Positions 44,516 to 60,234 of a stretch of DNA of 64,000 nt are shown here, in pieces. How positions within the stretch are numbered: position 1 is the stretch's first letter; every line of letters starts with the position of its first letter. This DNA comes from an uncultured Acidobacteriota bacterium. GTDB lineage: Bacteria > Acidobacteriota > Thermoanaerobaculia > Multivoradales > UBA5704. The notes under the pieces were generated by a model. The model saw only the letters and a program-made list of their open reading frames with translations, made no database searches and was not told the origin of the DNA. The position numbers and the translations under genes are program-made. The stretch lies in the NCBI GenBank assembly GCA_963770895.1, contig CAVYRF010000002.1:448001-512000 (forward strand), written 5' to 3'.

Positions 44516-44553
44516 CAGCTATCCCTTCGCCGCGATCGCATTCGACCGAGCCT

Positions 44554-45126
44554 TCAGCAAGTGCCTCGCCCGTGGCACGCCGCCGGTTGAGCTACTCTGG
44601 CGCCATACGCCGCTCGATCGATGCCGTAGCACAGCACCTCGCTGCCTTGATGCTCCATGCGGTGCTGGAACGTTTCGCCCGCGCGTTCGACCAGCCGCAC
44701 CGCGGCCGTGTTATCGGGATGGATCAGACTGATGACCTGATCCTTGCCCAGGGTGACGAAGGCGTGGGCCAGCGCTGCATGGTTGGCTTCCGTCGCATAG
44801 CCCCGCCCCCAGAAGCCACGAGCCAAGCGGCCGGCCAGCTCGCAACCCGGCCACCCCTCGGCCTCCACCAACCCGATCAAGCCGCAAAATGCGCCGCTCG
44901 CCCGCTCCTCCACCGCCCACATGCCGCACCCGCTGAGATGCCAGCTCCCGATCATGCAGGCCATGTGTCGCCACGACCGGGCGCGATCCCACAGCGCTCC
45001 TTGATCGAAATACCGCATTACCTCCGGGTCCGCATGCAGCGATGCATAGTCATCGAAGTCGGTGCGCTGCAAACACCGCAACATCAGCCTCTCGGTTTCC
45101 AGATTGGGGACTGCCTGCATGAACAT
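44554..45126 (-). CDS. GNAT (RimJ/RimL-like) N-acetyltransferase
   Basis: LETERLMLR, DPEVMRY, FWGRGYATEA and IHPDN. GGGAGG RBS. Confidence 0.88.
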   Translation of the reverse strand: MFMQAVPNLETERLMLRCLQRTDFDDYASLHADPEVMRYFDQGALWDRARSWRHMACMIGSWHLSGCGMWAVEERASGAFCGLIGLVEAEGWPGCELAGRLARGFWGRGYATEANHAALAHAFVTLGKDQVISLIHPDNTAAVRLVERAGETFQHRMEHQGSEVLCYGIDRAAYGARVAQPAACHGRGTC

Positions 45127-45487
45127 GCGATGGTCCTCCCAAAAGTGCGTGCGCGATGCGCGACCGAGGAAAACGAGAGCACGGCTAGTCACAGTCGCCC
45201 TCGGGCTCGTCCAGCTGCCACCGGCCGCCAGCGTGGCAAGGCGGCCCGGCATCCCAACGGGATTTATTTTGTAGGGGCCGGTGCCACTTGGGCTGCGGAA
45301 GCAAACTGATGCGAGTAAAAACCACTTACGAGGGCACGAAGCGGTACTTTCGTTCTGCGCGCGCGGGCCAAGGACCAGACCCGCCTGCCCGCCCAGATTT
45401 CTTCGAAGCGAAGCTCCGGGTTCTGGCGCGCGCTGAAGAGGCAATCGATGCCGGCGCCGACAACTGAGGCGGCGTTACCCCAACGCT

Positions 45488-46882
45488 TTAGGCCGCGCGC
45501 CGCAGAAGATCGAGAGCCCGCTGCGCCTCGCTGTGCAGTTCCAATGCCTCGAAAATGGCCATGGATTCATGCGCCAGAGCCTTTACCTCTGCCGACTTGC
45601 CCTGCGTCGCATGAATTTCCGCGAGTTCCAGGGTCACGAGTGCGGCAATGTAGACATTGTGGCTTGCGGCAAAGTCCCGACGCACCTTTTCGAAACCGGT
45701 CACGGCCTCGGCCACGCGGCCCTGGCCGGCCGCCACGCGGCTCTCTAACCAGCTTACTCGCAGGAGTTCCAGCCGCTTGCCGAATCCCTCAGCCATGGAG
45801 CGGATCTCAGAAAGCAGAAGCTCCGCCTCGTGATAACGCTTCAGCTGACATAGATTGACGGCCAGGTTCTTCCGAACGATGTAGTACTTCCATGGCTCTT
45901 GCTCAAAACCGATGTGTCCGGCCGCCTGCTGCAACCACTGGATTGCCCCCTGCAAGTCACCCATTTGTTCCAGGGTCCTGGATTTCCCGAGGAGCAGCGA
46001 TGGCATCTCGCCCCAGCGGTCGATCTTGAGCGCCTCGTCGAGAAGAGCCAGCGCTTCATCGAGCCGACGCTGCGCTCGCCGCAGCGACGCCTTCAGGTGG
46101 AGGACGCGGGCCTCATTGAGATACCCCGGGTCGGCCGCGGCACCCTCCTGCCAGAGCTCCATGCCGTACGCGAATGCCTTTTCGGCTGCCGCGAGATCCC
46201 GACCGCCCACGCGCAGAGCGTTTGCTACATGACATCGTGCATATCCCTCAAGCCGAGAGCGCCACCCGGCACCGACCGGCAGCCGACTGGCGATCAATAC
46301 AGCCAGATCGCCGAGACTTTCAGCCCTCTCGGAGCTATCGCCAGCGGCATCCAGGCTCTTGTCGCAGATCAGCACGCAGAGGCCAGGGCTCTGGAGGTCG
46401 TGAAGGTGGCACACCAACTCCCGCCGCACGGTGTCTGAGTAGCGGTCGATCCGCATCCAAAGCTCCGGCGCTGACCGGCGGCTCTCGATGAAGTCAACGG
46501 GTTCATAGGAGTGCCGGCTTGCCGTCAAATCACGCAGCACAAGGGAAGCAAGGTCAACCCCAAGATCCGCAGCGACGGTTGCGGCTGGAAGGCCTTGTAC
46601 CTGCAAGGTGGTTTGCGCCACAGGTAGGCGTGCCCCTTCGCTGCGAAGCCGGCCCAGAAGCGCAACCACTTCATCGATGGCGCTCAGGGGCATGCCGAGC
46701 GCTGAAGTAATCCGTGCCAGGGTCCCCGGGTTTGGCTCGCCCTTGCCTTGCTCCAGCCGCTTGATCGTATCGACGTGAATTCCCGCCGCACGGGCCAGGG
46801 CCTTCTGCTCCTGGCCTCGCGCCAGACGCAAGAAGCTCAGCGCCAGACCTCTATCGCTTCGATGCCCCGTCTTCGCCCTCAT
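45488..46882 (-). CDS. XRE-HTH + TPR regulator A1 (C-terminal tail degenerate)
   Basis: HTH LRLARGQEQKALARAAGIHVDTIKRLEQG. TPR core with ANALRV, NEARV, DRWGE and AALVTLELA. Stops before the conserved ARxxPxLxF tail. Confidence 0.8.
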   Translation of the reverse strand: MRAKTGHRSDRGLALSFLRLARGQEQKALARAAGIHVDTIKRLEQGKGEPNPGTLARITSALGMPLSAIDEVVALLGRLRSEGARLPVAQTTLQVQGLPAATVAADLGVDLASLVLRDLTASRHSYEPVDFIESRRSAPELWMRIDRYSDTVRRELVCHLHDLQSPGLCVLICDKSLDAAGDSSERAESLGDLAVLIASRLPVGAGWRSRLEGYARCHVANALRVGGRDLAAAEKAFAYGMELWQEGAAADPGYLNEARVLHLKASLRRAQRRLDEALALLDEALKIDRWGEMPSLLLGKSRTLEQMGDLQGAIQWLQQAAGHIGFEQEPWKYYIVRKNLAVNLCQLKRYHEAELLLSEIRSMAEGFGKRLELLRVSWLESRVAAGQGRVAEAVTGFEKVRRDFAASHNVYIAALVTLELAEIHATQGKSAEVKALAHESMAIFEALELHSEAQRALDLLRRAA

Positions 46883-47037
46883 TTGCGCGCACCCTCATTC
46901 ATTAAGATGGGGCAGGATGACCTCCCCTAGGGAGGCACAGCCTTGTATTTTGTGACCGCCGTCCACATCCAGGATCTTCGAGGCGCCCCGCGGCCAGGCA
47001 GGCCGCGTTGACGTCGCTTCCGAGAAAGGAGCATCCG

Positions 47038-47448
47038 ATGAAGCCGTTCTCCCGTCTTCTGATGGTGGGCATTCTCTTCACGATCTTAGCTGCGCCTGGG
47101 GCGCTTGCGGCCCCTCCATCGCCGCACAGAGTGTCCGCCGGCTCGCCGATTGGTCTCGCCGACGCGTGGGACAGCGTGGTTGCGCGCATGCTGGACTGGC
47201 TGGGCGAGCGGCCCGCAAATCACTCCGGCAGACCGTCCGCTTCGCGGGCGATGTCGCCTGATGAAGGTTGTACAACGGATCCGAATGGACTGTGTGCAGA
47301 TGCAGGGCCGAGAAAGCGGGTGCCATCGAACCTTTCGGCCGGGCCTGGCGGCAAGGCTCTTGGCTTGAGATTCCAATCCAGAATGCCCGTCGAGTCGCCA
47401 GCTGACACTGGTTGCTCGACCGATCCCAACGGGCAGTGCCTTCACTAA
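47038..47448 (+). CDS. Small secreted peptide precursor P2 with two DxGCxTDPNGxC cores
   Basis: AAGGAG RBS, signal peptide MKPFSRLLMVGILFTILAAPGALA, Trp helix AWDSVVARMLDWLG, and cores DEGCTTDPNGLC and DTGCSTDPNGQC. Confidence 0.78.
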   Translation: MKPFSRLLMVGILFTILAAPGALAAPPSPHRVSAGSPIGLADAWDSVVARMLDWLGERPANHSGRPSASRAMSPDEGCTTDPNGLCADAGPRKRVPSNLSAGPGGKALGLRFQSRMPVESPADTGCSTDPNGQCLH

Positions 47449-47517
47449 GGAGAGGTGGCGCTGGTAATGCCGGACAGGAGCGCTGATAGCGTTCCGATCG
47501 GACCCCAATGCCTCCTC

Positions 47518-49440
47518 TCATGCGGGCGTGCCCTCAAAGGGAAGCTGCGGATTGTGACGGGCCCGGTACAGATACTGGATGAGGCCGCTGAGGAATGAGC
47601 CCGTCGCTCGTTCTTCAGCGGCCGCCCGCCGGAACAGGTCCAGTGCCCGCTGCGCTTCGGCGTGCACCTGCTGCGCGGCGAAAATCGGCGCCGATTTTTC
47701 GGCCAGCACCTTTACCTCGGCCGTGCGCCCCAGGGCAGCATGGATCTGCGCCAGCTCCAGAGTCACCAGGGCGGCATCGTACGCATCCTTGTGACGGGCG
47801 AACTGCTGACGTGCTCGTGCCAGAAGTGAGGCCGCTTCTTTTGTTCGGCCAAGGCCGAATGCGATTTTGCCTTCGAGCCAGATGACCCGAATCTGCTCCA
47901 AGGGCTTGCCAAACTGCATCGCCAATGCATGCACGTTGGGAAGCATCAACGCGGCCTGGCCATACTGTCCGAGATGGCAGAGGGTGGCCGCCAGATTCTT
48001 CTGCACGATGTAGAACTTCCAAGGCTCTTGCTGGGGATCGATACGGGACGAGACCTCCCGCAACACCCTCTCAGCCAGGCTGAAGTCACCCGACTCCTCG
48101 AGCGCTTTAGCCTTGCTGAGGAGCAATGCCGTCGTCTCACCCCAGCGGTCGACCACCAGTGCCTTATTCAACAGCGCCAGAGCGTCCGGAATACGACGTT
48201 GGGCTCGACGCAGTGACGTCTCCAGGTGGAGCACCCGCGCCTCGTTGAGCAGCCCCTGGTCGGCGCCTGCACCGGACCGCCACAGCTGAAGGGCGGCATG
48301 AAATGACTTTTCGGCGGCAACCAGGTCGTCGCCGGCCACACGCATTGCATTGGCGATGTGGCATCGAGCGTAGCCTTCCAGTTGGCAGCGGAATGCCGCA
48401 TCCCCGGGCACTCGCGCCGCGATGAGCAGAGCGAGATCGGCAAGGAGGGCCGCTTCCCTTGCGCTGCCACCCGCGGCCTCCAGGCTCTTGTCGCAGATCA
48501 ACTCGCACAGACCGACGGTGTGGAACTCCGCCCCTTCGCAGACCAAAGCTCGCTGGGCATCCTCCGAGACACGCTGCAGGCACTCCCACTGCAAGGGCGC
48601 CTGCCAGCGGGAAAGCTGAACTCGTGCTACCCACACCAGCCCCTCAAGGCATACCGCCATCCAATCCTCGGCCCGGCGCGCCTGGGCAGCCACCACTTGC
48701 TCGATTGCCTCTCGCGTCGGATCGTCACTGATCGCCATGTGGGATTCCAGCGCCGACGCGGCCAACTGAACGAAACCGAGGGTCCGATCCAGCATCCCTG
48801 GCGGGAATCCCATCCCCTCGACAATGCGGTTGAGCGTCAGCATGCGGGGCACGGTCTTGCCAAGCTCGTAGCTCGAAATCGAGGTTTTGCGAGCACCGAC
48901 GCTCTCGGCAAGATCCTGCTGTCCAGATCTGCGAATCACTCGCAAGATGACCAGCACCACATCCACCGGGAGAGACCCGCGGTCGGACCTGGCCTTTTCA
49001 GGCCGGGAAGACCCGATCCCCGCATCCGTCGCCGGCGTAGCGCCGTCCGCACCTGAACCGTCCGCCTGCTCCCGCACATCGCGAAGGAGGCGCATCAGCA
49101 ACTGGCGAGCGAGCCCTTCCATCCATCCACCGGCTTCGACCGTCAGCCGGTCGAGCCACGCCGAAAGCGCGGGCTGGCCTGCCCCCACGTAAAGCTCTCT
49201 TTCGACCCGCGCCCAGCGCACAAAGGAAACGGTTCGATCGAGAAGCCTGGGTGGATAGCCCATGGCGGCAACCAACAGCTGCCGCGTTTCGAGCGAAGGC
49301 GTCTTCGAACCGCGCTCGAATTTCGCGATCGAGGTGACTTGCAAACCCGCCTGCTGCGCCAGCTCTGAGCGAGTCCAGCGGCGCACCACCCGCAGGATGG
49401 TGAGCGCCTCTGCCCACGGTAGCGCCGCGTCCTCCGCCAT
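47518..49440 (-). CDS. Tandem XRE-HTH + TPR regulator A2
   Basis: Two HTH domains (RRWTRSELAQQAGL...FERG; QQDLAESVG...YELGKTVP), TPR core and YLYRARHNPQLPF tail. Start chosen by GGAG RBS and homology to 52428. Confidence 0.82.
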   Translation of the reverse strand: MAEDAALPWAEALTILRVVRRWTRSELAQQAGLQVTSIAKFERGSKTPSLETRQLLVAAMGYPPRLLDRTVSFVRWARVERELYVGAGQPALSAWLDRLTVEAGGWMEGLARQLLMRLLRDVREQADGSGADGATPATDAGIGSSRPEKARSDRGSLPVDVVLVILRVIRRSGQQDLAESVGARKTSISSYELGKTVPRMLTLNRIVEGMGFPPGMLDRTLGFVQLAASALESHMAISDDPTREAIEQVVAAQARRAEDWMAVCLEGLVWVARVQLSRWQAPLQWECLQRVSEDAQRALVCEGAEFHTVGLCELICDKSLEAAGGSAREAALLADLALLIAARVPGDAAFRCQLEGYARCHIANAMRVAGDDLVAAEKSFHAALQLWRSGAGADQGLLNEARVLHLETSLRRAQRRIPDALALLNKALVVDRWGETTALLLSKAKALEESGDFSLAERVLREVSSRIDPQQEPWKFYIVQKNLAATLCHLGQYGQAALMLPNVHALAMQFGKPLEQIRVIWLEGKIAFGLGRTKEAASLLARARQQFARHKDAYDAALVTLELAQIHAALGRTAEVKVLAEKSAPIFAAQQVHAEAQRALDLFRRAAAEERATGSFLSGLIQYLYRARHNPQLPFEGTPA

Positions 49441-49625
49441 TCCATGCTCCAACCAAAGTGCCTGCCCTGAGAAAATCCGGTCCCAGCCCGCGGCCGTCCG
49501 CTGCAGAGGAGGACCTTCCAAGGATCTCTAACGTCCAGCACTGTAGAGCTTAAACGATCCCGCCATGATGGCGCTACAACCGAGGCGGTGAGGGCTTTGG
49601 ACCGGTAGCGCAGGCACCTCAACAA

Positions 49626-49892
49626 TTGCCCCGATCGCGACGCGCCTGGCGGCGCGTGCGCGATCGGGCCGGGGGGGGCGGGCGAGGCGTTTTGCCCCGC
49701 TTAGCGCTTCTGGCCGCGGCGGACGCGTTCGAGGAGGCGGGTGGAGTCTTTCATGCACTCCATCATTTTTTCTTGCAGGCCTTCGCCGCGGCCCAGGCCT
49801 CGGGCGTGGGCCAGGACGCTGCGGGCGCGGTCTTCTTCTCCGGAAGCTAGCAGGGCCATGCCGAGGTGGGTGAGGGTGTTGGCGGAGGGGCC
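49626..49892. repeat. Direct repeat copy 1 (267 bp): 3' end and hairpin of the TPR gene at 57494-59341
   Basis: Identical by eye to 57418-57685 except for a G8 versus G9 run. Confidence 0.9.
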
Positions 49893-50268
49893 GACACCGC
49901 ACCTGGGCGACGGCGCCCTGGTGCAGCACCTCGCCCAGGCTGCGCAGCATGCGCAGGACCGAGGCGTGGACGGCCTGCTGCTCCTCCGCGGTCAGGTCAT
50001 CCGCCGGGGCCTCCGCATCCCCGCCGGCCATGGAGAGCAGGAGAGCCACCATCGACGTCGTGAGCTCGCCGACTCCATCCGCCGTGCGCATTGCCGCCAC
50101 CAGTGCGTCGAAGCGCTCTTGGGTCAGGCGGATCTTGCCGTTTTCGTATTGGGACAGCTGACTGCTGCCGGTTCCGCTGGCCTTCGCCAGAGCGGTTTGC
50201 GTCCATCCGTTGATCGCCCGCACGATGGTCAGCGATAGCCCCAGGGCGGAGGGTTGCGATCGGTTCAA
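49893..50268 (-). pseudogene. Truncated XRE-HTH(-TPR) regulator
   Basis: HTH LSLTIVRAINGWTQTALAKASGTGSSQLSQYENGK. The frame runs into repeat copy 1 after ...AVAQVRC and then reads out-of-frame junk to 49528. Confidence 0.65.
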
Positions 50269-50690
50269 ACTACCTTCCCCTCATAGAACTGACTTTCCAG
50301 CAGGGCGTTGGTCACCTCGACGGCTGCCAGCAAGGCGTCGGCCGCCGGCTCCAGGTGATCGCTGATCGCGCCTTCTACGGCGGCACGAAGATCCATCCCG
50401 ACGGTGTACGGCGCGCAGTGCTCCTCGCGCGCCTTGAAGTCATCCGGCAGCGGGATCTGTCCGTACAGCTCGCGCAAACGACCCGACAGTTTCTTGATCT
50501 GCGCTGCGATCAGGCGGAGCTGGCGCTTGCGAACCGACAGCGGGTCTTGCGGCCTGCCCGCTTTGCGAGCGGTCTTCCCGGACCGCACCACCGATGCGGG
50601 TCCCCTGCCCGTCCCGGCGTTCCCGGGCGCGCACGACATCCCGTCGAAGGGTGCTGCGATGCGCAGATCAGCAGACCGCTCGCGCGCCAT
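50265..50690 (-). CDS. Small helical hypothetical protein coupled to the HTH gene
   Basis: GGAG RBS. The stop overlaps the TTG start of the HTH gene. Helical segments QLRLIAAQIKKLSGRLRELY and DLRAAVEGAISDHLEPAADALL. Confidence 0.6.
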   Translation of the reverse strand: MARERSADLRIAAPFDGMSCAPGNAGTGRGPASVVRSGKTARKAGRPQDPLSVRKRQLRLIAAQIKKLSGRLRELYGQIPLPDDFKAREEHCAPYTVGMDLRAAVEGAISDHLEPAADALLAAVEVTNALLESQFYEGKVV

Positions 50691-50697
50691 GTCGGAC

Positions 50698-51993
50698 CTA
50701 CTCCAGCATCTCGGGCGAAGCGCCGCACACAGGCTCGAGCTCACCGTGGTAACGCAGCAGCCGGTCGGTCAGGGTGCGCTGCGGGCACAGCAGGTCCGGG
50801 CGCCCCGGCACCGGCTGGTGCGCGCCCAGACGGTCGATCAAGGTGTTGACGGCCTCGTAGTACGCCCGGCGTCCGCGAGCGTCCAAGGCAACCAGATCGC
50901 GCAGCGCCTGCGCCCAGGGGACCCCAGCGATCGCAAAAGCCTGCTCCAGCCCCGCCGCCAGCGCCTCGCCCTGCAAGGCTAGGCCGCCCTCGACCCGCGC
51001 GGTCAGCAGGTCGCAGCTCACGGTGACCGCTTCGGCCAGGCTCCCCTCGCTCAGCAAGCGTGCGTGCACCGCGCCCAGCTGCGCCAGGGCCTCGGCAAAG
51101 CGCCCCGCCGCGGCGGCGATGTGGCCTTCCGCCCAGGTGCGAGCCACGTCCTCGCACCATGGCGCGGGCAGCGCGTACAGCTGTCGCGCGCGCTCCAACC
51201 ACGGTTCCGCATCCAGACCCACCTCGCCCCCCTGGCGGGCTTCGCACTCGGCGCAGGCCAGCGCCACCCGCACCGCCGTCACCGTCGCCGCTGCCTGATC
51301 TTGCAGAAGGACCCAGGCGCGCTTCAGGTTGCCGCGGGCCGCGGCCAGGTCACCCGACTCCATCTGCAGAAAGCCGATTTCGGCCAGGCACGCGGCCAGC
51401 GGCAGGCGCGCCGCGGCCGCGGCGAAGGCGACGGACGCGCGCTGGAAGTACATGACGGCGCTATCCCACCCGCCGTACGCCTGCGCCACCTGCGCCCAGC
51501 CGGCATGCGCCAGGCCCAGTTCCTCGCTCGGCTGGTGCGGCACCTCCAGATAGCTGTGAATACCGCCCAGCGCCGCCGCGGCGGCCGCAGGATCACCACG
51601 GTGCAGGAGCGCCTTGCCCAGCAGCCAATGGGCCAGGGCACCGGCCCGCCTCACGCGACCGCGGGCGTCCCGCACCACGCGCGCCGCCAGAATCGTCGCC
51701 AGCTCGGCCTCCTGCTCGCCGGCATCGGCGCCGTGCGGTGCCAGCACCGCACTTTCGGCCTCCAGGTTGAACAAAGTCAGCAGCTCGGCGCGGTGGAAAC
51801 GTGGGTCTTGTTGGGCCGTTTGTAGCCGCACGGCCCGCGGCATGGCCATCAGCTCCCGCGCCAGGCAGACAGACGCATAGGCGCGTTCCAAAGGCCGGTC
51901 AAGCCAGCCCGAGGCGCCGGGGCCATCTGGCACGGCCGGCGTCAGGCGGAGCGGGGGATTTTCGCCGCGGCGCAAGCTGCCTTCTGGCTCCAT
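50698..51993 (-). CDS. TPR-like helical repeat protein C2
   Basis: Paralog of 43310-44515. GGGAGG upstream of the ATG at 51993. Start uncertain. Confidence 0.7.
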   Translation of the reverse strand: MEPEGSLRRGENPPLRLTPAVPDGPGASGWLDRPLERAYASVCLARELMAMPRAVRLQTAQQDPRFHRAELLTLFNLEAESAVLAPHGADAGEQEAELATILAARVVRDARGRVRRAGALAHWLLGKALLHRGDPAAAAAALGGIHSYLEVPHQPSEELGLAHAGWAQVAQAYGGWDSAVMYFQRASVAFAAAAARLPLAACLAEIGFLQMESGDLAAARGNLKRAWVLLQDQAAATVTAVRVALACAECEARQGGEVGLDAEPWLERARQLYALPAPWCEDVARTWAEGHIAAAAGRFAEALAQLGAVHARLLSEGSLAEAVTVSCDLLTARVEGGLALQGEALAAGLEQAFAIAGVPWAQALRDLVALDARGRRAYYEAVNTLIDRLGAHQPVPGRPDLLCPQRTLTDRLLRYHGELEPVCGASPEMLE

Positions 51994-52316
51994 GATCGAT
52001 GTCACCCTCCCAAGGATCGGTTCTTCTCGTACCTGCATGTCGGCGTTGCCAGGTGCACGGCTCAGTCCTCGGAACGGGAAATACCCAGCGGCCTTGCCGG
52101 CCTGGCCGAGCACAGGTCACCAGCGGCACGGTTGGCCTGATCGAGCTTCGCTCCGCGCAATCCGGCGGTACCGCGTTACCGGCCACCTCCAGGTCCAGCC
52201 ACCCGATCCATATGCAGACGCTACCCTGCGCTCGACACCTAACCCCCTGGATCTGCCCTGGCGCTGCATCCGGCGTCATTGCCAGGAATCGTGAAATCTC
52301 TTAAGATGGGTATTCG

Positions 52317-52342
52317 TTGACACTTCGTTGCCATGCAACGAA
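52317..52342 (+). promoter_or_regulatory. TTGACA box followed by a perfect palindrome (candidate operator)
   Basis: TTGACA at 52317-52322, then TTCGTTGC-CAT-GCAACGAA at 52324-52342, in the divergent C2/B1 intergenic region. Confidence 0.45.
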
Positions 52343-52427
52343 ACAGATGCAGCTGGGACGCCGCGCATCGGTCGCGGAGGCGCTGCGCGCCACGCACCCG
52401 GGCATCCACCGATCTTCTGGAGGCGAC

Positions 52428-54347
52428 ATGGCGAAGGACCCGAGGCCGGCCTGGGCCAAGGCCCTCACCACCCTGCGGCTCATCCGTCGTTGGAACCGAA
52501 GAAAGCTGGCGCAGGCGGCAGGGTTGTCGGCCAGCGCGATCACCCGCTACGAAAAAGGCGATCGCGGTACGGTCGAAGACGCGATACGCCTCGGCTTTGC
52601 CATGGGATTCCCCCACCACGTCTGGCAGCGCGTATTGGAATTCGTGGTCGCGGTCGAGGGCATGCACGCAGGTCAGCCGTCGACGCCGGATCAAGGCGCC
52701 AACAGCTCGATTGAAGCGATTGCCAGGACCGCTGCAAAGTGGACAGAGGCGCTGATCAAGTCGGCACTGACCACGACTCTGGTCGAGTCGCGCCGGCAGC
52801 TGAACGTCGCTTCCGTGCCTGCAAAGCGCCAGCCGGCGCGCTCCGCGCTCGCGGGGCGAGCATCGCACGCCAAGCGACCTGCCGCCGCGCCCAGCGCCCC
52901 GCCGGCCACCGGCGAGGCCATCGTCATCCTCCGCATGATGCGTAGCTGGGAACGGCAGGATCTCGCCGACGCAATCGGCCGGCCCGACGAAACCGTCGCC
53001 AACTACGAGTACGGCAGGACTGTGCCCAATCCCCAGGTGCTGCGCGCCCTGCTTGCAGTCATGGACTATCCCCTCGCGGCACTCGAGGCCGCGATCGAGC
53101 TCGTTCATATGGCGCGGGAAGCACACAGGCTCTCGCGCGACGTCGGTCGCGACAGGCAGTCGGCCGAAATCGCCACGATCGCGGCGCAAAAAGCCCGGAG
53201 GGTCGCAGCGTTTACCCGCGGAGAGATGGAAGAGTTGGCGGTCGTGGCGCGGGTCCTGGTGTCCCGCGACGGAGCCGAAAGCCTGTGGGCATCGCTTTCT
53301 GCTTGTTCCGAAAGGAGCCAGCACGACTTGGTGCGCCAGCTGGTTCTGTACCAGACGCCGGGATTTTGCGAGCTGCTCTGCGACGAGAGCCTGAAGGTGG
53401 CGGGGGACAGTGCGCGGCGAGCCAAGCACTTGGCCGAACTGGCGGTCCTGGCCGCCGAGCTGGCCACTGGCAGCGACGCCTTTCGCGCCCGCCTACGCGG
53501 CTTCGCCGGCGCTCACCACGCCAATGCCCTGCGGGTCGCCGGACATCACCTGCCGGCGGCGGGCGCGGCGTTGGATCGCGCCCTGGCGGCGTGGAATGCG
53601 GGTGCCGGGTCCGATGCAGGGATGCTCAATGCAGCGCGGGTATGCGGCCTTCTCGCGTCGATGCGACGCGGACAGCGCCTCCTGCCGGCAGCCATCCAGG
53701 CGCTCGACGAGGGGCTCAGGGTCGACCGCTGGGGCGAGACGCCGGTGCTGCGGCTCGCCAAGGCAAGGGTGCTGATTGAGATGGGAGACTTCGCAGCATC
53801 CATCGATCAGCTGCGGCGGGCGGAGAGCGATTTAGACGGCGAGGCCGAGCCACGACGGTTCTACGTGATCGAGAACTTGCAGGTGCTCAACCTGTGTCAT
53901 CTCGGCCAGTTCGCAGCCGCCGAGCGGAAACTGGCCAGTCTGCGCCGGCTGGCGCGGAGCAATCGGCTCGACCTGCTGCGGGTTGACTGGCTGGCGGGAA
54001 AGGTGGCCGCTGGGCTGAGGCAAGAAACAGAGGCGCTCGCCTTGCTTCTGCAGGCGCGTGCCGGTTTCGTCGAGGTGGGCAACGCCTATGACGCTGCCCT
54101 GGTGACCCTGGAGCTTGCTGAAGTGCAGTCCTCGCTAGGCCACACCGCCGAAGTCAAAGCGCTTGCCCGCAAGTCGGCGCCCATCTTTGCGGACCAGCGG
54201 GTGCACCGGGAAGCGCAGCGGGCGCTCGCATTGTTTCGCGCCGCGGCGGAAGAGGAGAGGGTTACCAGCGACCTGTTGCGTCACCTGATCGTCTATCTCT
54301 GCAAGGCCCGTCACGATCCATCCCTCCGCTTCGCCGCAGAGGGTTGA
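52428..54347 (+). CDS. Tandem XRE-HTH + TPR regulator B1
   Basis: GGAGG RBS. HTHs RRWNRRKLAQAAGL...YEKG and RQDLADAIG...YEYGRTVP, TPR core and ARHDPSLRF tail. Confidence 0.83.
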   Translation: MAKDPRPAWAKALTTLRLIRRWNRRKLAQAAGLSASAITRYEKGDRGTVEDAIRLGFAMGFPHHVWQRVLEFVVAVEGMHAGQPSTPDQGANSSIEAIARTAAKWTEALIKSALTTTLVESRRQLNVASVPAKRQPARSALAGRASHAKRPAAAPSAPPATGEAIVILRMMRSWERQDLADAIGRPDETVANYEYGRTVPNPQVLRALLAVMDYPLAALEAAIELVHMAREAHRLSRDVGRDRQSAEIATIAAQKARRVAAFTRGEMEELAVVARVLVSRDGAESLWASLSACSERSQHDLVRQLVLYQTPGFCELLCDESLKVAGDSARRAKHLAELAVLAAELATGSDAFRARLRGFAGAHHANALRVAGHHLPAAGAALDRALAAWNAGAGSDAGMLNAARVCGLLASMRRGQRLLPAAIQALDEGLRVDRWGETPVLRLAKARVLIEMGDFAASIDQLRRAESDLDGEAEPRRFYVIENLQVLNLCHLGQFAAAERKLASLRRLARSNRLDLLRVDWLAGKVAAGLRQETEALALLLQARAGFVEVGNAYDAALVTLELAEVQSSLGHTAEVKALARKSAPIFADQRVHREAQRALALFRAAAEEERVTSDLLRHLIVYLCKARHDPSLRFAAEG

Positions 54348-54513
54348 ACCATCCACCCCGCCAGGGCTCGGACCGCAACCATGAAACCGCAACCGGTCCT
54401 GGGGGCAAGCTCCTGCGCGAGCTTGTCTGCGACAGGCCTGCTCGGCGGCAGGCTCTCGATCCCGAGCGATTCGACCGCGATCGTGACGGAGAGCCCACCG
54501 TTCGCCGGCGTGC

Positions 54514-54816
54514 CTAGCCGCCGTAGGGGTCGGCTCCCGGTCCTTCGTCGGACTGCGAGGACGGTGGAGGCGCACCGGCCGGTTGCGCCAAGGCGTTCTC
54601 GAGACTCGACGTCGCATGTCCAGACGGGACTCTTGCCGATCCAAGCGTCGGTAGCCGATTCGACAGCCAACCCCAGAGAACCGCCAAGGGTTGCCAGAGT
54701 GAAGAGGAGGCACCACCTGGAGCGTGGGCCGCAACCGGTGAGGCAAAGGCCGCAAGAGGAGGCAGAACGATCAAAAGGACCAGGCCAAGGGCGATGACGC
54801 GGGGGACACGGTGCAT
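54514..54816 (-). CDS. Small secreted peptide precursor P3 (C-terminal SDEGPGADPYGG*)
   Basis: AAGGAGG RBS, signal peptide MHRVPRVIALGLVLLIVLPPLAAFA, Trp helix SLWQPLAVLWGWLS and a terminal DPYGG. Confidence 0.78.
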   Translation of the reverse strand: MHRVPRVIALGLVLLIVLPPLAAFASPVAAHAPGGASSSLWQPLAVLWGWLSNRLPTLGSARVPSGHATSSLENALAQPAGAPPPSSQSDEGPGADPYGG

Positions 54817-54989
54817 ACAGATCCTCCTTGAGCGGGGCGACTGCGAACGCGGCCGGCATGGACCGCGACGGTGCCCCCGAGAGCTACAGTGCCCAGGGTG
54901 TCAAGAATACTGCTAAAAAGTGCGTTTCCAGGGCCTGAAATCTACCCTGTATTGACGCCGCTTTGCCAGGTGCCGTGAGGAGCCTCACT

Positions 54990-56867
54990 ATGCCAGGAGT
55001 GATGGGACGCAGCGACGAGCTGGGATTGGTGCTGATCCTCTTGCGCCACCTCAAGGGCTGGTCGCAGAAGGAGCTGGTGGCTGCGTCGGGAGTCAGCTTC
55101 GGCGGTCTCCGCGGTCTGGAGCAGGGGCAGAGGCGCCAGCCGACGCTGAAGACTCTGGCGCCGCTTGCGATGGCCCTCGGCGTGGACCTGGCAGCCATTG
55201 CCGAGGCGGCAGCCGTGATCCATGGCCTGGGTGGCGCGACCCCACCAGGTGCAGCAGCCGCGGCAACCAGCGGCGCTGAACGGGCCGATGACCTGGTGAT
55301 CACGGTCGAGCCGGACGTTTCTCAGAGCGTCACCGCTGCTCTCTTGGCTGCCGCGTCGGTCGCTTCGCCTGGCCCCGGCCTGCCGCGCAGCGCAGCGCAT
55401 CAGCAGCCGGTGGCGGAAGGGAGCCAGGATCTGGGCCTGGCGGTGAAGCTCCTGCGGTTGCGACGCGGTATGGCGGTGGTGGACCTCGCTCGAATCACGG
55501 GGATGACCGTCGCGACACTGCAAGCGCTCGAGAATGCCAGGCTACGGACACCGCCGGCGAAGCTGTCCGCCGTCCTATCGGCTCTTGGCGTCGACCAAGC
55601 GACGCTGGCAACGACCCTTTCCTTGATCTGCAAGCTCCGGCGCCTGGTGGTCGCGACTGCTTCGTGGGCGGAACAGCCAGCGCTCCCAATGCAAAGCTTG
55701 GCGGAGCCCACCACCTTGCGAGACCAGCTTGCCGCCCTGCTGCTTGACGAGGCCACTGCGGTGCCCGAGCAAGCGGCTTGTGAGGACGAAGCCCGCCAGC
55801 GGGCCACGGCGCTTTGGTCCCTGCTTGCACGTTGCCCACAGACAGCTCTACGGGCGCTGGTACGTCAAGCGCCCGAGCTGCAAAGCGTCGCAGCCTGTGA
55901 AATGTTCTGCCAGCAAAGCCTGGATGTGGCGGGTGACAGCGCGCGCCGGGCAAGGCAGCGGGCCGAGCTGGCGGTCATGGCGGCCGAGCGGGCTCGCGGC
56001 AGCGCAGGCCTTCGCGCGCGCCTTGCAGGCTTCGCCGGCGTTCACCTCGCCAATGCCCTGCGCGTCGCCGGCACCAGCGTACCCACGGCCGGTGTGGCGT
56101 TCGATCGCGCTCTGGCAACCTGGAATGCGGGCGAAGGCGCCGATGGCGGGCGATTGAATGCAGCGCGAGTGCGCGGCCTGGAAGCTTCGATGCGGCGGGC
56201 GCAGCGCCGGCTCACCGAGGCGCTGGCGGCGGTAAACGAAGGTCTCCGCATCGACCGCTGGGGTGAGGCACCGGCCCTGCGCCTCGCCAAGGCCAGGGTG
56301 CTCATCGAGATGGGTGAGTTCGCACCATCGATCGACCAGCTACAGCAGGCCGCCGCTGCAATCGACGGCGATCGCGAGCCGCGCATGCTCTATGTCGTCG
56401 AGAACCTGCACATCCTCAACCTGTGCCACCTGGGGCAGTTCGCGATAGCCGCCCAGCGCCTGCCCAAGCTCCGGCTGCTGGCACAGAGCAATCGCCTCGA
56501 CCTTTTGCTTGCAGAGTGGCTAGCCGGCAAGGTAGCGGCCGGGCTGGGCCGTGTGGCAGAGGCGCTCGCCCTGCTGCTCCAAGTGCGCGCCGATTTCCTG
56601 GAGCGTCACAACGTCTACGACGCGGCCCTGGTCACGCTGGAGATAGCCGAGGTCCACGCATCGCTGGGCCACACGGCAGATGTTAAGGAACTGGCCCGCG
56701 CATCGGCGCCCATCTTCGTGGACCAGCGGGTGCACCGAGAAGCGCGGCGCGGCTTGGCGCTCTTCCGCCAGGCAGCCGAAGACGAAAAGGCGACCGGCGA
56801 GTTGCTCCACCGGCTGCTCGTCTATCTGCGCAGTGCCCGCCAGGATCCCCACCTGCGCTTCGCCTGA
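54990..56867 (+). CDS. Tandem XRE-HTH + TPR regulator B2
   Basis: GAGGAG RBS. HTHs KGWSQKELVAASGV...LEQG and RRGMAVVDLARITGM...LENA, TPR core and ARQDPHLRF tail. Confidence 0.83.
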   Translation: MPGVMGRSDELGLVLILLRHLKGWSQKELVAASGVSFGGLRGLEQGQRRQPTLKTLAPLAMALGVDLAAIAEAAAVIHGLGGATPPGAAAAATSGAERADDLVITVEPDVSQSVTAALLAAASVASPGPGLPRSAAHQQPVAEGSQDLGLAVKLLRLRRGMAVVDLARITGMTVATLQALENARLRTPPAKLSAVLSALGVDQATLATTLSLICKLRRLVVATASWAEQPALPMQSLAEPTTLRDQLAALLLDEATAVPEQAACEDEARQRATALWSLLARCPQTALRALVRQAPELQSVAACEMFCQQSLDVAGDSARRARQRAELAVMAAERARGSAGLRARLAGFAGVHLANALRVAGTSVPTAGVAFDRALATWNAGEGADGGRLNAARVRGLEASMRRAQRRLTEALAAVNEGLRIDRWGEAPALRLAKARVLIEMGEFAPSIDQLQQAAAAIDGDREPRMLYVVENLHILNLCHLGQFAIAAQRLPKLRLLAQSNRLDLLLAEWLAGKVAAGLGRVAEALALLLQVRADFLERHNVYDAALVTLEIAEVHASLGHTADVKELARASAPIFVDQRVHREARRGLALFRQAAEDEKATGELLHRLLVYLRSARQDPHLRFA

Positions 56868-57100
56868 TTCCTATGAGCACGAAGCCCGTATCATGGACGA
56901 GCAAGCCGAGAGACGCCGGACGGGATTCGATCACTGATCTAACACTGCGACGGGCGGCGCTTGGCAGCGGCGAGCCGCACCGTGCGGGCGTTCGTTTTTT
57001 CAGTCTCGACCGCCGGCTTGGCGCCGGTGCGTTCGGCGGCGCCCGCCCCGAGGCCAATCCCGACCGGGCGCGGTTGGCGCGCCAGAAAGGGCACTCGTCC

Positions 57101-57643
57101 ATGCATAGTTCCGTCGCGCTTCGCATCGCCAAGGTCACGGCCGCGCTAGCCCTGATGGTACCCCTGGCCCTGACGGCCAGGACCCCTTGCAGGTTCGCGG
57201 TCTCTCATCAGCAAATGGTCGCGGGCACCAGCATTCTGGACCAGGCATATCGCTGGTTCGTCTCGGTCCTGCCCTGGAGCAGCCCCGGCACCGAGCCCCG
57301 GCCTCTTCAGCGCGCCCCAGCTCGTCCCGTGAAGCCGCTCACCACGTGTACGATCGATCCAAGCGGCGGTTGCGTCAGCAGCAATATCCCGGCATCTATC
57401 CAAAGCGCCAAAAACAGTTGCCCCGATCGCGACGCGCCTGGCGGCGCGTGCGCGATCGGGCCGGGGGGGGGCGGGCGAGGCGTTTTGCCCCGCTTAGCGC
57501 TTCTGGCCGCGGCGGACGCGTTCGAGGAGGCGGGTGGAGTCTTTCATGCACTCCATCATTTTTTCTTGCAGGCCTTCGCCGCGGCCCAGGCCTCGGGCGT
57601 GGGCCAGGACGCTGCGGGCGCGGTCTTCTTCTCCGGAAGCTAG
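57101..57643 (+). CDS. Small secreted peptide precursor P4 (TCTIDPSGGC core; 3' end uncertain)
   Basis: AGAAAGG RBS, signal-like N-terminus, aromatic helix ILDQAYRWFVSVLPW and core at 57341-57373. The ORF runs on antisense into the neighbouring gene. Confidence 0.6.
   Translation: MHSSVALRIAKVTAALALMVPLALTARTPCRFAVSHQQMVAGTSILDQAYRWFVSVLPWSSPGTEPRPLQRAPARPVKPLTTCTIDPSGGCVSSNIPASIQSAKNSCPDRDAPGGACAIGPGGGGRGVLPRLALLAAADAFEEAGGVFHALHHFFLQAFAAAQASGVGQDAAGAVFFSGS
57410..57460 (-). terminator. Probable intrinsic terminator of the TPR gene
   Basis: Stem CCCGATCGCG-ACGCGCC / GGCGCGT-G-CGCGATCGGG, followed on the minus strand by CAACTGTTTTT. Confidence 0.55.
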
Positions 57644-57685
57644 CAGGGCCATGCCGAGGTGGGTGAGGGTGTTGGCGGAGGGGCC
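57418..57685. repeat. Direct repeat copy 2 (268 bp)
   Basis: Matches 49626-49892. Confidence 0.9.
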
Positions 57686-59341
57686 CAGCTCGCTCGACTT
57701 GGAGAGGAAGTCGATGGCTTTGTCGAATTCCTTGCGCTTGTAGTGCACCCAGCCCAGGGCGGCAAGGGGGAACTGGCGGATCTCGTCGGGCGATAGCTCT
57801 ACCGAACGGCGGGCGAAGCCCAGGGCTTCGTCCAGGTCCTCTTCCATCTCTGCCAGGTTGTAGGCCATCTCGTAGTAGGCGATGGTCTTGCTGAAGTTGG
57901 AGCCGGATTCGTCCACCATGCGCTGGCCGATGCGGTTGCCTTCGCGGTATTTGCCCTGGCTGCGCATGGCCTCGATGAGGGCGGCGCAGGCGGTCGCCTT
58001 GAGCATCTCGCCGGGATTGAGGTCCAGGACCTTGCGGGTGACGGCCTCGATCTCCTGGCTGCGGTTGAGGTGCAGGCAGAGCAGGGCGTACGACATCAAA
58101 AGCGTCGGGTTTTCGGGATCCAGGGCCAGGGCCCGGCGGTAGCAGGAGTGGGCCTGCTTGAGGTTTTCGCGCTGCAGGAAGTCTTCGCCCTTGGCCAGCC
58201 ACCCCGCCGCTTCGCCGTCGACGCCGGGCAGCGGGCTGCCGCCGGCCTGACCCGAAAGGTAGTGCACCAGGTCCTGGTACTGGAGCTTCTTGGGGTTGAG
58301 GCGCTGCGCCTGGCGGAACGATTCCAGGGCCTTGCGGTTCCAATGGCGGTCCAGGTAGGCGAGGCCGAGAAGGTGGTGGGCTTCTTCGAAGGCCGGGTCG
58401 TGGCGCACCGCTTCCTGCAGGTGGCGGACGGCGGCGGTCAGCTTGCCCATCTCGTAGCAGCAGCTGCCCAGCAGGAAGAGCGCCTGCGGCACCGCGTCCA
58501 CCTGCACGGCGCGCTCCAGGAAGAGCACCGCCTTGGCGAGGTTGCCCTGGCCGGCGTAGACCGCGCCCAGGCTGAACTGCGGCAGGAAGCTGTCGGGGTA
58601 GATCGCCACCGCACGCTTGAGGTAGTCCTCGGCGCGTCCGTGGTCGCCGCGCTCGTAGTAGATGACGCCGCTGTAGACCAGGCCTTCGTAATGGTCGTGC
58701 TTGACCTCCAGCACGCGCGAAAAGCAGGCCAGGGCGGGCTCCGAGTTGCCTTCGTTGAAGTGGGTCTCACCCAGGAAGTAGGCCAGCTCGTAGTTGTCGC
58801 GGTCCAGCTTGTAGGCCGCGTCCAGCGCCGCCACCGCACGCTCGATGTCGAAGGCGAACAGGGCGTATTCGGCGTCTTCCAGATGCTGCAGGAAGAGCTT
58901 GCGCTTGTCGCCGTGATGCAGGGCGGCGATGCGCTCCTTGATCGACAGGAAGCGCTCGCGCTTTTCGAGCGCCAGCAGCTGGTAGTCCATCTTGGACTCC
59001 CAGAGGTCGCTCCATTCATCGCCGGCGATCAGCCGCTTCTGCTCCAGCAGCTCGCGCAGGGCGGTCATGCCCGTCTGGTTGATGAGGATGTTCTTTTCCT
59101 GCTTGTGCAGCGCTCCCAGCAGCTGGCGCACCGTTTCGGCGGTGCGCTTGACCGCCTCTTCCAGGATGGAGATGCGCTCCAGCAGGTGCTCGTCGAAGGA
59201 GAAGTTCTCCTCCGGCGTGCCCTCTTCGTAGGGCTCTTCGTCTTCGTTGGCGCCGCCCGACAGCACCAGCAGCTTCTGGTGGCAGCGGACGCAGAATTCC
59301 TGGTCGTCCTGGTTGAGGGCGCCGCAGACCTGGCAGTACAT
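57494..59341 (-). CDS. TPR protein with N-terminal zinc ribbon
   Basis: MYCQVCG...FCVRC, a coiled-coil segment and many canonical TPRs. Strong high-GC codon usage. Confidence 0.85.
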   Translation of the reverse strand: MYCQVCGALNQDDQEFCVRCHQKLLVLSGGANEDEEPYEEGTPEENFSFDEHLLERISILEEAVKRTAETVRQLLGALHKQEKNILINQTGMTALRELLEQKRLIAGDEWSDLWESKMDYQLLALEKRERFLSIKERIAALHHGDKRKLFLQHLEDAEYALFAFDIERAVAALDAAYKLDRDNYELAYFLGETHFNEGNSEPALACFSRVLEVKHDHYEGLVYSGVIYYERGDHGRAEDYLKRAVAIYPDSFLPQFSLGAVYAGQGNLAKAVLFLERAVQVDAVPQALFLLGSCCYEMGKLTAAVRHLQEAVRHDPAFEEAHHLLGLAYLDRHWNRKALESFRQAQRLNPKKLQYQDLVHYLSGQAGGSPLPGVDGEAAGWLAKGEDFLQRENLKQAHSCYRRALALDPENPTLLMSYALLCLHLNRSQEIEAVTRKVLDLNPGEMLKATACAALIEAMRSQGKYREGNRIGQRMVDESGSNFSKTIAYYEMAYNLAEMEEDLDEALGFARRSVELSPDEIRQFPLAALGWVHYKRKEFDKAIDFLSKSSELGPSANTLTHLGMALLASGEEDRARSVLAHARGLGRGEGLQEKMMECMKDSTRLLERVRRGQKR

Positions 59342-59343
59342 CC

Positions 59344-60234
59344 TCACTTGGCCGGGGCCTCCTGGTAGTCGTAAAAGCCGCGTCCCGACTTGCGGCCGAG
59401 GTGGCCGGCGTCGACCATCTTGACCAGCAGCGGGCACGGACGGTACTTGGGATCGCCGAAGCCCTCCTGCAGCACGCGCAGGATGTCCAGGCAGACGTCC
59501 AGCCCGATCAGGTCGGCGAGCGCCAGCGGTCCCATGGGATGGTTCATCCCAAGCTTCATAACCTGATCGATGGCCGCCGCCTTCCCCACTCCCTCGTAGA
59601 GGCAGAAGATCGCCTCGTTGATCATCGGCATCAGCACCCGGTTGGAGACGAACCCCGGCGCGTCGTAGACCTCGACCGGCGTCTTGCCCATCTGCCGCGC
59701 CGCCGCCTCTACCGTGTCGTAGGTGTGCTGGTCGGTCGCCAGGCCGCGGATGATCTCCACCAGCTGCATGACCGGCACCGGGTTCATGAAGTGCATGCCG
59801 ATGACCTTGCCCGGCCGCCGCGTGGCGGCAGCCAGCCGGGTGATCGAGATCGAGCTGGTATTGGTGCCCAGGATCGCGTGCTCCGGGCAGACCCGGTCGA
59901 GCTCGGCAAGCACGCGCTGCTTGACCTCGAGCTTTTCGACCACCGCTTCGATCGCCAGGTCGACCTGGGCCAGCGCCGCCAGGTCGCCGCCGGTCGAGAC
60001 CCGCGCCAGCGCCCGGTCGCGGTCTTCGGCCGCCAGCTTCCCCTTGTCCACCAGCCGGGCCAGCCCCTTGCCGATCTGGGCCACGCCGCGCGCCAGCGCC
60101 GCCGGCGCCGCATCCACCAGGGTCACCTGGTAGCCCGCTTGCGCCGCCACCTGGGCGATGCCATGCCCCATGGTGCCGGCCCCCACCACCCCGATCCGCA
60201 GCCCGCTCGCCTCACCTGCCGCCGTCTCGCTCAT
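59344..60234 (-). CDS. hbd: 3-hydroxybutyryl-CoA dehydrogenase
   Basis: VVGAGTMGHGIAQ, NTSSISI, GMHFMNPVPVM and HPMGPLALADLIGLD. Confidence 0.93.
   Translation of the reverse strand: MSETAAGEASGLRIGVVGAGTMGHGIAQVAAQAGYQVTLVDAAPAALARGVAQIGKGLARLVDKGKLAAEDRDRALARVSTGGDLAALAQVDLAIEAVVEKLEVKQRVLAELDRVCPEHAILGTNTSSISITRLAAATRRPGKVIGMHFMNPVPVMQLVEIIRGLATDQHTYDTVEAAARQMGKTPVEVYDAPGFVSNRVLMPMINEAIFCLYEGVGKAAAIDQVMKLGMNHPMGPLALADLIGLDVCLDILRVLQEGFGDPKYRPCPLLVKMVDAGHLGRKSGRGFYDYQEAPAK

Follow-up and report, generated by a model that had tools for sequence, protein, structure and literature searches.

Sensor-domain gene conversion in a putative RRNPP-like receptor-peptide-receptor module of Thermoanaerobaculia

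Introduction

Two surveys of the RRNPP family, PMC10075063 and PMC9765709, describe it as one of the Firmicutes, and the five-point signature set out in PMC10075063 comprises a propeptide of 10-100 amino acids, its Sec export, a receptor of 250-500 amino acids, peptide-binding TPRs, and adjacent genes spaced from -60 to 400 bp. Here we describe a locus with comparable features in a 64,000-nucleotide stretch of DNA (the window; G000:C2:448001-512000) from the metagenome-assembled genome (MAG) of an uncultured soil acidobacterium of the Thermoanaerobaculia (genome G000; 8.16 Mb, roughly 70% G+C, three contigs). At positions 45488-56867 the window contains two copies of one three-gene module, inverted relative to each other, in which a candidate propeptide gene lies between two receptor genes with DNA-binding parts of different type.

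Like RRNPP(A) regulators (Rap, Rgg, NprR, PlcR, PrgX, AimR, ComR), the receptors of this module, presumably cytoplasmic, join an N-terminal XRE-type helix-turn-helix (HTH) domain to a TPR-type sensor, and a small neighbouring gene encodes a propeptide with a putative Sec-type signal (recognised here by eye) and with its active part expected at the C-terminal end. Multi-copy propeptides occur there too, as PMC9765709 describes and PMC11343458 indicates, and the predicted fold matches Rap, NprR-NprX, PlcR-PapR and AimR (Z 15.5-20.4). Unlike RRNPP(A) systems, the module has an Acidobacteriota host and no detectable sequence relation to them, each peptide gene is accompanied by two receptors of different HTH type, three of the four receptors in the window have two HTH domains (634-676 amino acids), and the peptide cores are mostly Cys-closed DPxG loops within precursors of 90-165 amino acids. 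By analogy, the module would work as an RRNPP system does, but we do not file it as a member.

In Streptococcus pyogenes, the paralogous receptors Rgg2 and Rgg3 answer the near-identical peptides SHP2 and SHP3, Rgg3 as a repressor that is released and Rgg2 as an activator; each is paired with a peptide gene of its own, the two bind common promoters and are 55% identical overall, and no domain-limited conversion is described (PMC4162386). Our module would share with this pair the two paralogous receptors that respond to the same peptide with different outputs; it differs in that a single peptide gene lies between the receptors, their HTH parts are only 19-30% identical, and the sensor parts alone are homogenised.

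Concerted evolution by gene conversion is known from rRNA operons and tuf genes. As in those genes, paralogues within a genome are here closer than orthologues between genomes, and the tracts are bounded by homology; unlike in those genes, conversion is limited to one domain of a two-domain regulator, which would couple ligand specificity and keep the outputs distinct.

Among the papers listed in our literature searches, none reports an RRNPP system for Acidobacteria, other diderms, Myxococcota or Pseudomonadota, although supplements of the cited papers could list non-Firmicutes candidates. Searches on Acidobacteria combined with signalling peptides, TPR, HTH or precursors led only to Firmicutes systems, nothing was found on peptide quorum sensing in Thermoanaerobaculia, and titles and abstracts of the papers listed revealed no bacterial case of sensor-domain gene conversion in receptor paralogues. 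The peptide family and the system carry no annotation and were not found in print by these searches. If our reading holds, a conserved and expanded RRNPP-like form of signalling in a soil phylum that is abundant yet uncultured would extend the range over which bacteria are known to communicate by peptides, and its candidate signals could be synthesised for organisms that still resist cultivation; it would also offer a testable answer to how specificity can change where more than one receptor has to follow, namely by copying the sensor domain across while each DNA-binding half is left alone.

Results and Discussion

Organisation of the module

Read on the receptor strand, every cassette has the order alpha receptor (forward), propeptide (reverse), beta receptor (forward). 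Cassette A consists of A2, P2 and A1 and cassette B of B1, P3 and B2, where A2 and B1 are of the alpha and A1 and B2 of the beta type according to alignment with their nearest paralogues; P2 and P3 each run convergently with one receptor gene and divergently from its partner. The original prediction had described two mirror-image triplets, and the list of open reading frames (ORFs) agrees with it, the two being one module in two orientations. In cassette A, the beta receptor A1 (45488..46882, minus strand, 464 amino acids) has one XRE HTH of the beta group (Pfam HTH_3, 4.4e-9) and a TPR-like sensor (TPR_12, 3.3e-7), the propeptide P2 lies at 47038..47448 on the plus strand (ORF listed from 47008), and the alpha receptor A2 (47518..49521, minus strand, likely start MAEDAAL at 49440) has two XRE HTHs and a TPR-like sensor. 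In cassette B, the alpha receptor B1 (52317..54347, plus strand, likely start MAKDPRP at 52428) has two HTHs and a sensor, the ORF of the propeptide P3 occupies 54514..54816 on the minus strand, and the beta receptor B2 (54963..56867, plus strand) was assigned two HTHs and a sensor from its ORF, Pfam, the alignment and the HTH tree. The gaps between the listed ORF ends, 125 bp for A1-P2 (155 bp from the ATG at 47038), 69 bp for P2-A2, 166 bp for B1-P3 and 146 bp for P3-B2, lie within the adjacency range of the RRNPP signature (-60 to 400 bp).

All four receptors have XRE-type HTH domains in Pfam, one in A1 and two each in A2, B1 and B2, and their HTH_3 (PF01381) scores (A1 36.7, A2 48.9, B1 45.5 and B2 63.2 bits) all pass the cut-off of 23. 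TPR matches in Pfam are weak, and only A1 exceeds a TPR cut-off (TPR_12, 30.8 vs 30.1 bits). The HTH domain or domains are followed by a variable linker and a TPR-like superhelix of about 330 residues. With 464 amino acids A1 falls within the RRNPP receptor range of 250-500, whereas A2, B1 and B2 (634-676 amino acids in the listed ORFs) exceed 500 because of a second HTH and a linker. The alpha HTHs show motifs such as ITRYEKG and MG(Y/F)P, the beta HTHs L(E)QG and ALG(V/M)D.

Discordant ancestry of the HTH and TPR parts

In a maximum likelihood tree of 26 TPR domains, the two receptors of one cassette (mates) pair with each other in cassettes A (97/94), B (98/92), C (100/99), D (100/97) and G (94/90). 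The TPRs of E, F, H and I instead group by gene position with matching branching, as plain duplication of a two-receptor module would predict, and thus provide an internal control. The HTH tree (36 domains) has a different structure: all alpha HTHs of A-D form one clade (96/91), A1, B2 and the beta receptor of cassette C (Cb) form another (85/82), and within the alpha HTHs the first and the second domain each branch as A, (B, C). Approximately unbiased (AU) tests rejected clades by type for the TPR parts (p 8.6e-36 for 4 v 4, 2.4e-7 for 3 v 3) and clades by cassette for the HTH parts of A (p 0.015), B (6.9e-6) and C (1e-87). Both halves of the predicted discordance, HTH parts grouping by position and TPR parts by cassette, are therefore borne out for A and B by the separate trees, which are not congruent, and by the AU tests, which extend the HTH result to C.

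When relatives from other genomes were included in the TPR tree, the pairs of C, D and G5x (a cassette of genome G005) were starred, A, B and G3 had 94/93, 94/92 and 93/90, and two other cassettes of G005 grouped by type. What can be said most safely for B is that its TPRs fall together with those of C and G5x in a single clade of six (100/100) to the exclusion of A and D, although their HTHs belong to two old lineages, which places homogenisation before or at the B/C split. A further event specific to B has moderate support; the B1-B2 pairing rests on a short branch.

All HTH and TPR motifs quoted in the original prediction are present in the receptor alignment, LNAARV.GL and NRLDLL also in cassette C elsewhere in the genome. 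TPR-like repeats carry little information and the G+C content of the genome is high, so the shared motifs could in principle reflect chance or the composition of Ala/Leu/Arg-rich helical repeats encoded at about 70% G+C. This explanation is already refuted by the AU tests on the TPR parts and by ungapped tracts of 90-96% nucleotide identity (see below), and the bootstrap support, the HTH AU tests and the complex-model controls also speak against it; we give it practically no weight.

Gene conversion of the sensor-coding part

The TPR parts of the alpha (Ca) and beta (Cb) receptors of cassette C are 0.85 identical in nucleotides and 0.82 in amino acids with a synonymous divergence (dS) of 0.33, while their HTH parts reach only 0.47-0.48 and 0.28-0.29, respectively, with dS 0.9-1.3. 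Because synonymous sites are alike as well, conversion rather than selection on the protein alone is indicated. In sliding windows, identity rises near a conserved LC..SL..AGD motif, where the TPR part begins, and does not drop again before the gene ends. The tracts in which blastn aligns alpha with beta genes have 95.7% identity over 1051 columns in G5x, 90.0% over 969 nt without gaps in C, and 73.2% over 969 columns in B, where they cover 53374..54335 (B1) and 55903..56864 (B2) on the plus strand, direct repeats D1 and D2 being further evidence for the B1 tract; in A the identity is 66-70% in two pieces, covering 45491..46384 (A1) and 47620..48513 (A2) on the minus strand, probably an old conversion tract. 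The tracts of the sister cassettes C and G5x cover only the TPR-coding 3' part of about 1 kb and either reach the stop codon or end no more than about 12 nt short of it; the HTH parts in these cassettes are only 26-38% identical in amino acids between alpha and beta. Conversion can work only on stretches that are still alignable, here the TPR part, and this accounts for the common start of all tracts and for their finish at the stop codon or a few nucleotides away from it.

Independent events can be recognised by comparing C with G5x (receptors Xa and Xb), its closest relative in both halves. In the N-terminal part, receptors of the same type are closer (Ca-Xa 0.69, Cb-Xb 0.56) than mates (Xa-Xb 0.38, Ca-Cb 0.31), and in the C-terminal sensor part the order is reversed (Ca-Xa 0.75 and Cb-Xb 0.77, against Xa-Xb 0.95 and Ca-Cb 0.88). 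That mates are closer than same-type pairs in the sensor half only implies at least two independent conversions after the cassettes separated. These nucleotide and region-wise comparisons show that the TPR-coding 3' part of about 1 kb has repeatedly been overwritten between the two genes of a module by gene conversion. The original prediction had proposed gene conversion or co-evolution as the route to homogenised sensors, and the first route is what the tracts of C (90.0%) and G005 (95.7%) and the sliding-window check point to. The events of the window pairs themselves are old (dS 1.0-1.5), so the evidence for A and B consists of phylogeny and shared groove residues. The signal peptide of G5x had suggested that this cassette is an orthologue of B, which was rejected because the region-wise identities place it with C.

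The same pattern, TPRs by cassette and HTHs by type, would likewise arise without conversion if every pair had originated in a separate tandem duplication and domain shuffling had afterwards brought in HTH parts from other cassettes. This would require a separate duplication and swap in A, B, C, D and G5x, each time with gene order and middle peptide kept, and no near-identical HTH donor is present, the best same-type HTH identity being 0.57-0.63. The HTH divergence between B and C (0.57-0.63) also matches that of their TPRs (0.61-0.65), as expected for a single duplication of the whole module, and the N-terminal parts of C and G5x are 0.56-0.69 alike, yet each cassette has its own near-identical TPR pair. 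We therefore regard separate duplications with swapped HTHs as very improbable and retain conversion.

Fold and variants of the receptors

An AlphaFold2 model of A1, built on a 29-row alignment (pLDDT 88.6, pTM 0.75), shows the HTH, a poorly defined linker and paired helices at residues 129-463. A VIA-align search of 48,161 chains matched this fold with the TPR of LGN (Z 21.4), the Rap protein of phage phi105 with its peptide (20.4), Pins (20.1), RapI (19.9), NprR-NprX (19.8), subunits of APC (19.4-19.8), PlcR-PapR (17.1, covering residues 8-463) and AimR (15.5), Rap, RapI and NprR-NprX (19.8-20.4) ranking within the top five. Foldseek gave no family-specific match, as LGN, APC, Rap, ComR and PlcR all scored at E 1e-5 to 1e-4, and the receptors matched no Pfam or NCBIfam model of a known RRNPP subfamily. 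The modelled fold of A1 is thus compatible with an RRNPP-type receptor and is not set apart from other TPR superhelices. As regards the TPRs of the RRNPP signature, A1 has the TPR_12 match, paired helices and fold matches of Z about 20, and peptide binding is modelled (see below).

A third type of receptor (gamma), in which the TPR part is flanked by an HTH on either side, adjoins cassettes C, E, G and H (L011 2246-4276, minus; L013 7119-9212, plus; L015 8307-10664, plus; L016 6765-9287, plus); its two HTHs come from different lineages in the HTH tree. An isolated ORF of 208 amino acids (G000:C2:365294-365920), 59-69% identical to the C-terminal 80-113 or so residues of A1 and B2, is by its sequence probably a receptor fragment, and the beta receptor of a cassette in genome G007 (L022 2857-4389) is interrupted by an in-frame TAG.

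Peptide genes

The precursors have in common a signal-peptide-like N-terminus, a Trp-rich motif (e.g. WLxxIWPW, LWGWL) and a core, C-x-x-D-P-x-G-x(1-3)-C, which is present one to four times between conserved flanks and whose last copy lies at or near the C-terminus. By eye, the N-termini begin with basic residues, continue through a hydrophobic core and finish in an A-x-A-like stretch (P2 ...AAPGALA, P3 ...LAAFA). P2, 136 amino acids from the ATG at 47038, has two C..DP.G.C cores (CTTDPNGLC and CSTDPNGQC by regular expression), the last near the C-terminus. P3 (100 amino acids) has linear cores without Cys and ends in ...SDEGPGADPYGG; together with three relatives it shares a linear C-terminus of the form ...D-(D/E)-G-x-x-(A/P)-DPYGG. 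Precursor lengths are 90-165 amino acids, most of them above the 10-100 amino acid limit of the RRNPP tool. No Pfam or NCBIfam family was found for nine precursors; weak sub-threshold matches to models of Cys-rich ribosomally synthesised and post-translationally modified peptides (RiPPs) have E 0.09-0.4.

In cassette C (L011 6439-7416), a tandem duplication of the peptide gene and a 5' fragment of the beta receptor has produced two P3-like genes with cores ...SAADPYGG and ...SAPDPYGG. The regions between peptide gene and beta receptor in B, C and G5x (window 54817-54962; L011 7306-7480; L019 2774-2950) contain TGTCAA and TTGACG boxes pointing outwards, which resemble the -35 elements of two divergent promoters placed back to back. 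Between the peptide and beta genes, the only exact palindromes are two short ones, not common to the cassettes, and we propose no operator.

Peptide binding and groove residues

The TPR part of B2 (25-row alignment) was modelled with the last 36 residues of P3 (4-row alignment) as the one receptor-peptide pair. The model reached ipSAE 0.88 in 3/3 runs, the best of three controls 0.01, and the runs have at least 58% of contacts in common; the ipSAE mark is reached by 58/80 solved complexes and 2/110 mismatched pairs, a calibration that holds only roughly for the custom alignments used here. The last 12 residues of P3 (SDEGPGADPYGG, residues 25-36 of 36) are predicted to sit in the TPR groove of B2, with P33 and Y34 contacting the family-invariant residues N87, R90 and S132.

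Identity at the 36 contact positions predicted by this model exceeds that of the remaining sites in mates (B1-B2 31/36 vs 0.64; A1-A2 26/35 vs 0.52; E1-E2 31/35 vs 0.58; I1-I2 31/35 vs 0.61), and same-type pairs from different cassettes have 24/36 vs 0.65 (B1-Ca) and 27/35 vs 0.67 (E1-I2). E1-E2 thus lies above E1-I2 at the contacts and below it at the other sites. In quartets of the cassettes that group by position in the TPR tree, sites following cassette and position were counted as 3:0 among contacts and 4:17 among non-contacts for E/F (Fisher p 0.017), 4:0 and 5:20 for E/H (0.005), 3:0 and 3:25 for E/I (0.004), 5:1 and 2:41 for F/H (6e-5), 2:1 and 4:18 for F/I (0.13), and 4:1 and 7:20 for H/I (0.037). 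Across 137 TPR domains, the contact identity of 42 mate pairs lies 0.073 above the trend of 9,274 non-mate pairs, 79% of the mate pairs being above it, and 6/42 exceed 0.75 non-contact identity, the mark of recent conversion. These comparisons, with contacts taken from the model, show groove residues tracking the cassette even where the TPR trees follow position (E, F, H, I), and so the co-evolution route of the original prediction finds support next to conversion. Its further claim, that both receptors of a cassette respond to the same peptide, gains from the B2-P3 complex model and its controls; the shared response is still something we infer.

Like sensors within a cassette might also be explained by the TPR parts being kept alike for pairing of alpha with beta, or for another shared partner, the peptide being a secreted product of bacteriocin-like or RiPP-like type with disulfides, its gene under the control of the two regulators. 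Receptors of the RRNPP type dimerise through their TPR parts, the precursors (90-165 amino acids) are longer than typical pheromone precursors and most have disulfide-type loops, and the sub-threshold matches to Cys-rich RiPP models (E 0.09-0.4) point the same way. Set against this are the modelled position of the invariant DPYG on the family-invariant N87, R90 and S132 (0.88 vs 0.01 for controls) and the enrichment of cassette-covarying residues at groove positions; moreover, by the ORF list and Pfam the receptor genes of the window have neither a modifying enzyme nor a dedicated exporter encoded next to them or in the space between. We consider pairing or another partner an unlikely reason for the likeness of the sensors.

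Another explanation would be a secretion feedback, in which the receptors bind the C-terminus of the unexported precursor like a chaperone of type III secretion and report export capacity. It would require no re-import across two membranes, the model does bind the C-terminal end of an uncut precursor fragment, and the fold list of A1 includes the TPR chaperone IpgC (Z 14.4) and an Aeromonas type III secretion complex (Z 15.3). Repeated cores with conserved flanks, however, suit cutting into several copies, comparable to the multi-copy RRNPPA propeptides described in PMC9765709, and the many paralogous modules with differing cores fit private channels better than a general gauge of export, so that such a feedback seems improbable to us.

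Proposed mechanism

We think it reasonably probable that the locus represents a lineage-specific three-gene module in which a single ligand conveys an RRNPP-like peptide signal to two DNA-binding outputs. The propeptide would be exported by its Sec-type signal and cut at the conserved flanks into one to four short core peptides; a core peptide would then return to the cytoplasm, bind, as modelled, in the concave TPR groove of the receptor, and, by analogy with RRNPP receptors, alter DNA binding by the HTH parts of two regulators that differ in DNA specificity. The HTH parts of alpha and beta are old, distinct lineages inherited with the module, and the sensor halves have repeatedly been overwritten by conversion, which, together with groove residues that track the module between conversions, would keep both receptors tuned to the module's own peptide. 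The outcome might be a single signal that drives two DNA-binding outputs, or possibly one read by an alpha/beta heterodimer.

Several points weigh against this reading. Acidobacteriota have an outer membrane, which would demand an extra step not needed in the Firmicutes systems, and the cytoplasm would reduce the cores with Cys loops. The fold of A1 is not specific for RRNPP receptors, given the eukaryotic LGN at Z 21.4 and APC subunits at 19.4-19.8, and a sequence-profile search of the PDB returned only generic TPR proteins, with RapH at E 0.038. In the complex model the pLDDT of the partner is at least 49 (about 50), so the peptide's own fold is uncertain, and the contact set derives from this single model on custom alignments; as the quartets and mate pairs share sequences as well as the model, their p-values overstate the case while the direction is consistent, and quartet F/I is not significant (p 0.13). 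As to conversion in the window, dS is saturated for its pairs (A 1.5, B 1.0), the TPR identity of B1-B2 (0.66) is barely above that of B vs C (0.61-0.65), and the AU test does not reject the by-cassette HTH pair for D (p 0.099). Under the patterns used, 15/68 receptor loci from related genomes have no peptide candidate, and the public runs listed as containing the region include no RNA run.

A broader picture, which we put forward tentatively as a serious possibility, is that an order of soil Acidobacteriota (Thermoanaerobaculia) has a large private repertoire of genetically encoded peptide signals with ten or more modules per genome, whose cytoplasmic HTH-TPR receptors would be the Gram-negative counterpart of RRNPP receptors, either independent or diverged beyond recognition. 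The two receptors of a module might have different targets or act as an alpha/beta heterodimer on an asymmetric operator, and domain-limited conversion would keep the readers matched. In this way further signal channels might arise with the circuit left intact, the readers being rematched when the peptide code shifts.

Distribution

By tblastn, 45 ORFs in this genome are related to the four receptors, mostly in adjacent pairs. A six-frame regular expression search found propeptide genes between or beside receptor pairs at five further loci besides P2 and P4 (an orphan propeptide-like gene, see below), and with three Cys-less genes of the P3 kind (P3 included) the genome has ten peptide genes. 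With B2 alone as query no relative was found in genome contigs, and related loci were searched with a profile built on an alignment of eight TPR domains. Apart from the window's own record, they came from MAGs labelled Thermoanaerobaculia or Acidobacteriota, two of them Holophagales. Among 73 loci from other Thermoanaerobaculia MAGs, a receptor is present in 68, at least two receptors in 34 and a peptide candidate in 53, the candidate being convergent and just 3' of a receptor in nearly all among the loci listed. The receptor family is present in 26/31 relatives searched, including 18/18 of the same family, and in 4/201 genomes sampled across the phylum (G000 included), all four from the same order; among the genomes searched it is thus confined to one order. 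Searching one precursor against 5.8 billion proteins yielded 206 relatives among 448 candidates, for which all given names are 'hypothetical protein' and all named organisms Thermoanaerobaculia.

Repeats and neighbouring genes

A direct repeat of 272 nt (R1, 49621..49892; R2, 57413..57685; 99% identical, 7.8 kb apart) brackets cassette B. It consists of a REP-like (repetitive extragenic palindrome) element and the last 64 or so codons of a TPR/zinc-ribbon gene (57494-59437), and might mark a recent rearrangement that placed cassettes A and B in opposite orientation. Contigs from four public DNA runs span the region in pieces only and break at the repeat edges; they therefore neither confirm nor refute the order of A and B. 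The left copy, R1, truncates an HTH gene with a gamma-like (gamma/J2-like) N-terminal HTH (Pfam HTH_3, 9.1e-9; resembling the first HTH, h1, of gamma sequences). Its ORF is listed as 49528-50268 (minus) because reading continues into a wrong frame of R1; the native part, an HTH-only stretch of about 125 codons, is 49893..50268.

P4 (57101..57416, plus strand), downstream of B2, has a signal-like N-terminus, a WFVSVLPW motif and one core, CTIDPSGGC, and its frame continues into the REP-like element. The apparent second core, CPDRDAPGGAC, was rejected as a peptide, being a translated part of this imperfect palindrome of about 77 nt (window 57417-57493), which is dispersed in about 45 further copies in G000 with 80-94% identity (e.g. 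C2:1524652-1524727 and C1:508873-508948), one of them adjoining cassette E (C2:1899691-1899766). R2 differs from R1 by one G in a run of G (G9 at 57463-57471 vs G8 at 49671-49678): with G8 the frame of P4 would end close to where the convergent gene stops, and in the G9 form it continues for 150 nt over that gene. The difference is due to a true frameshift or else to an assembly error in the homopolymer.

Two paralogous TPR-like proteins without HTH, 45% identical, are encoded at 43310-44515 and 50698-52113 (both minus strand), the latter having 471 amino acids according to the ORF list and Pfam and faintly resembling the receptor TPR profile (hhalign probability 62%, E 7.8e-5, 319 columns); on this similarity, both may be receptor relatives without the DNA-binding part. 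The G+C content at third codon positions is lower in genes of window 44000-58000 (0.64-0.83) than in most flanking genes (0.81-0.94).

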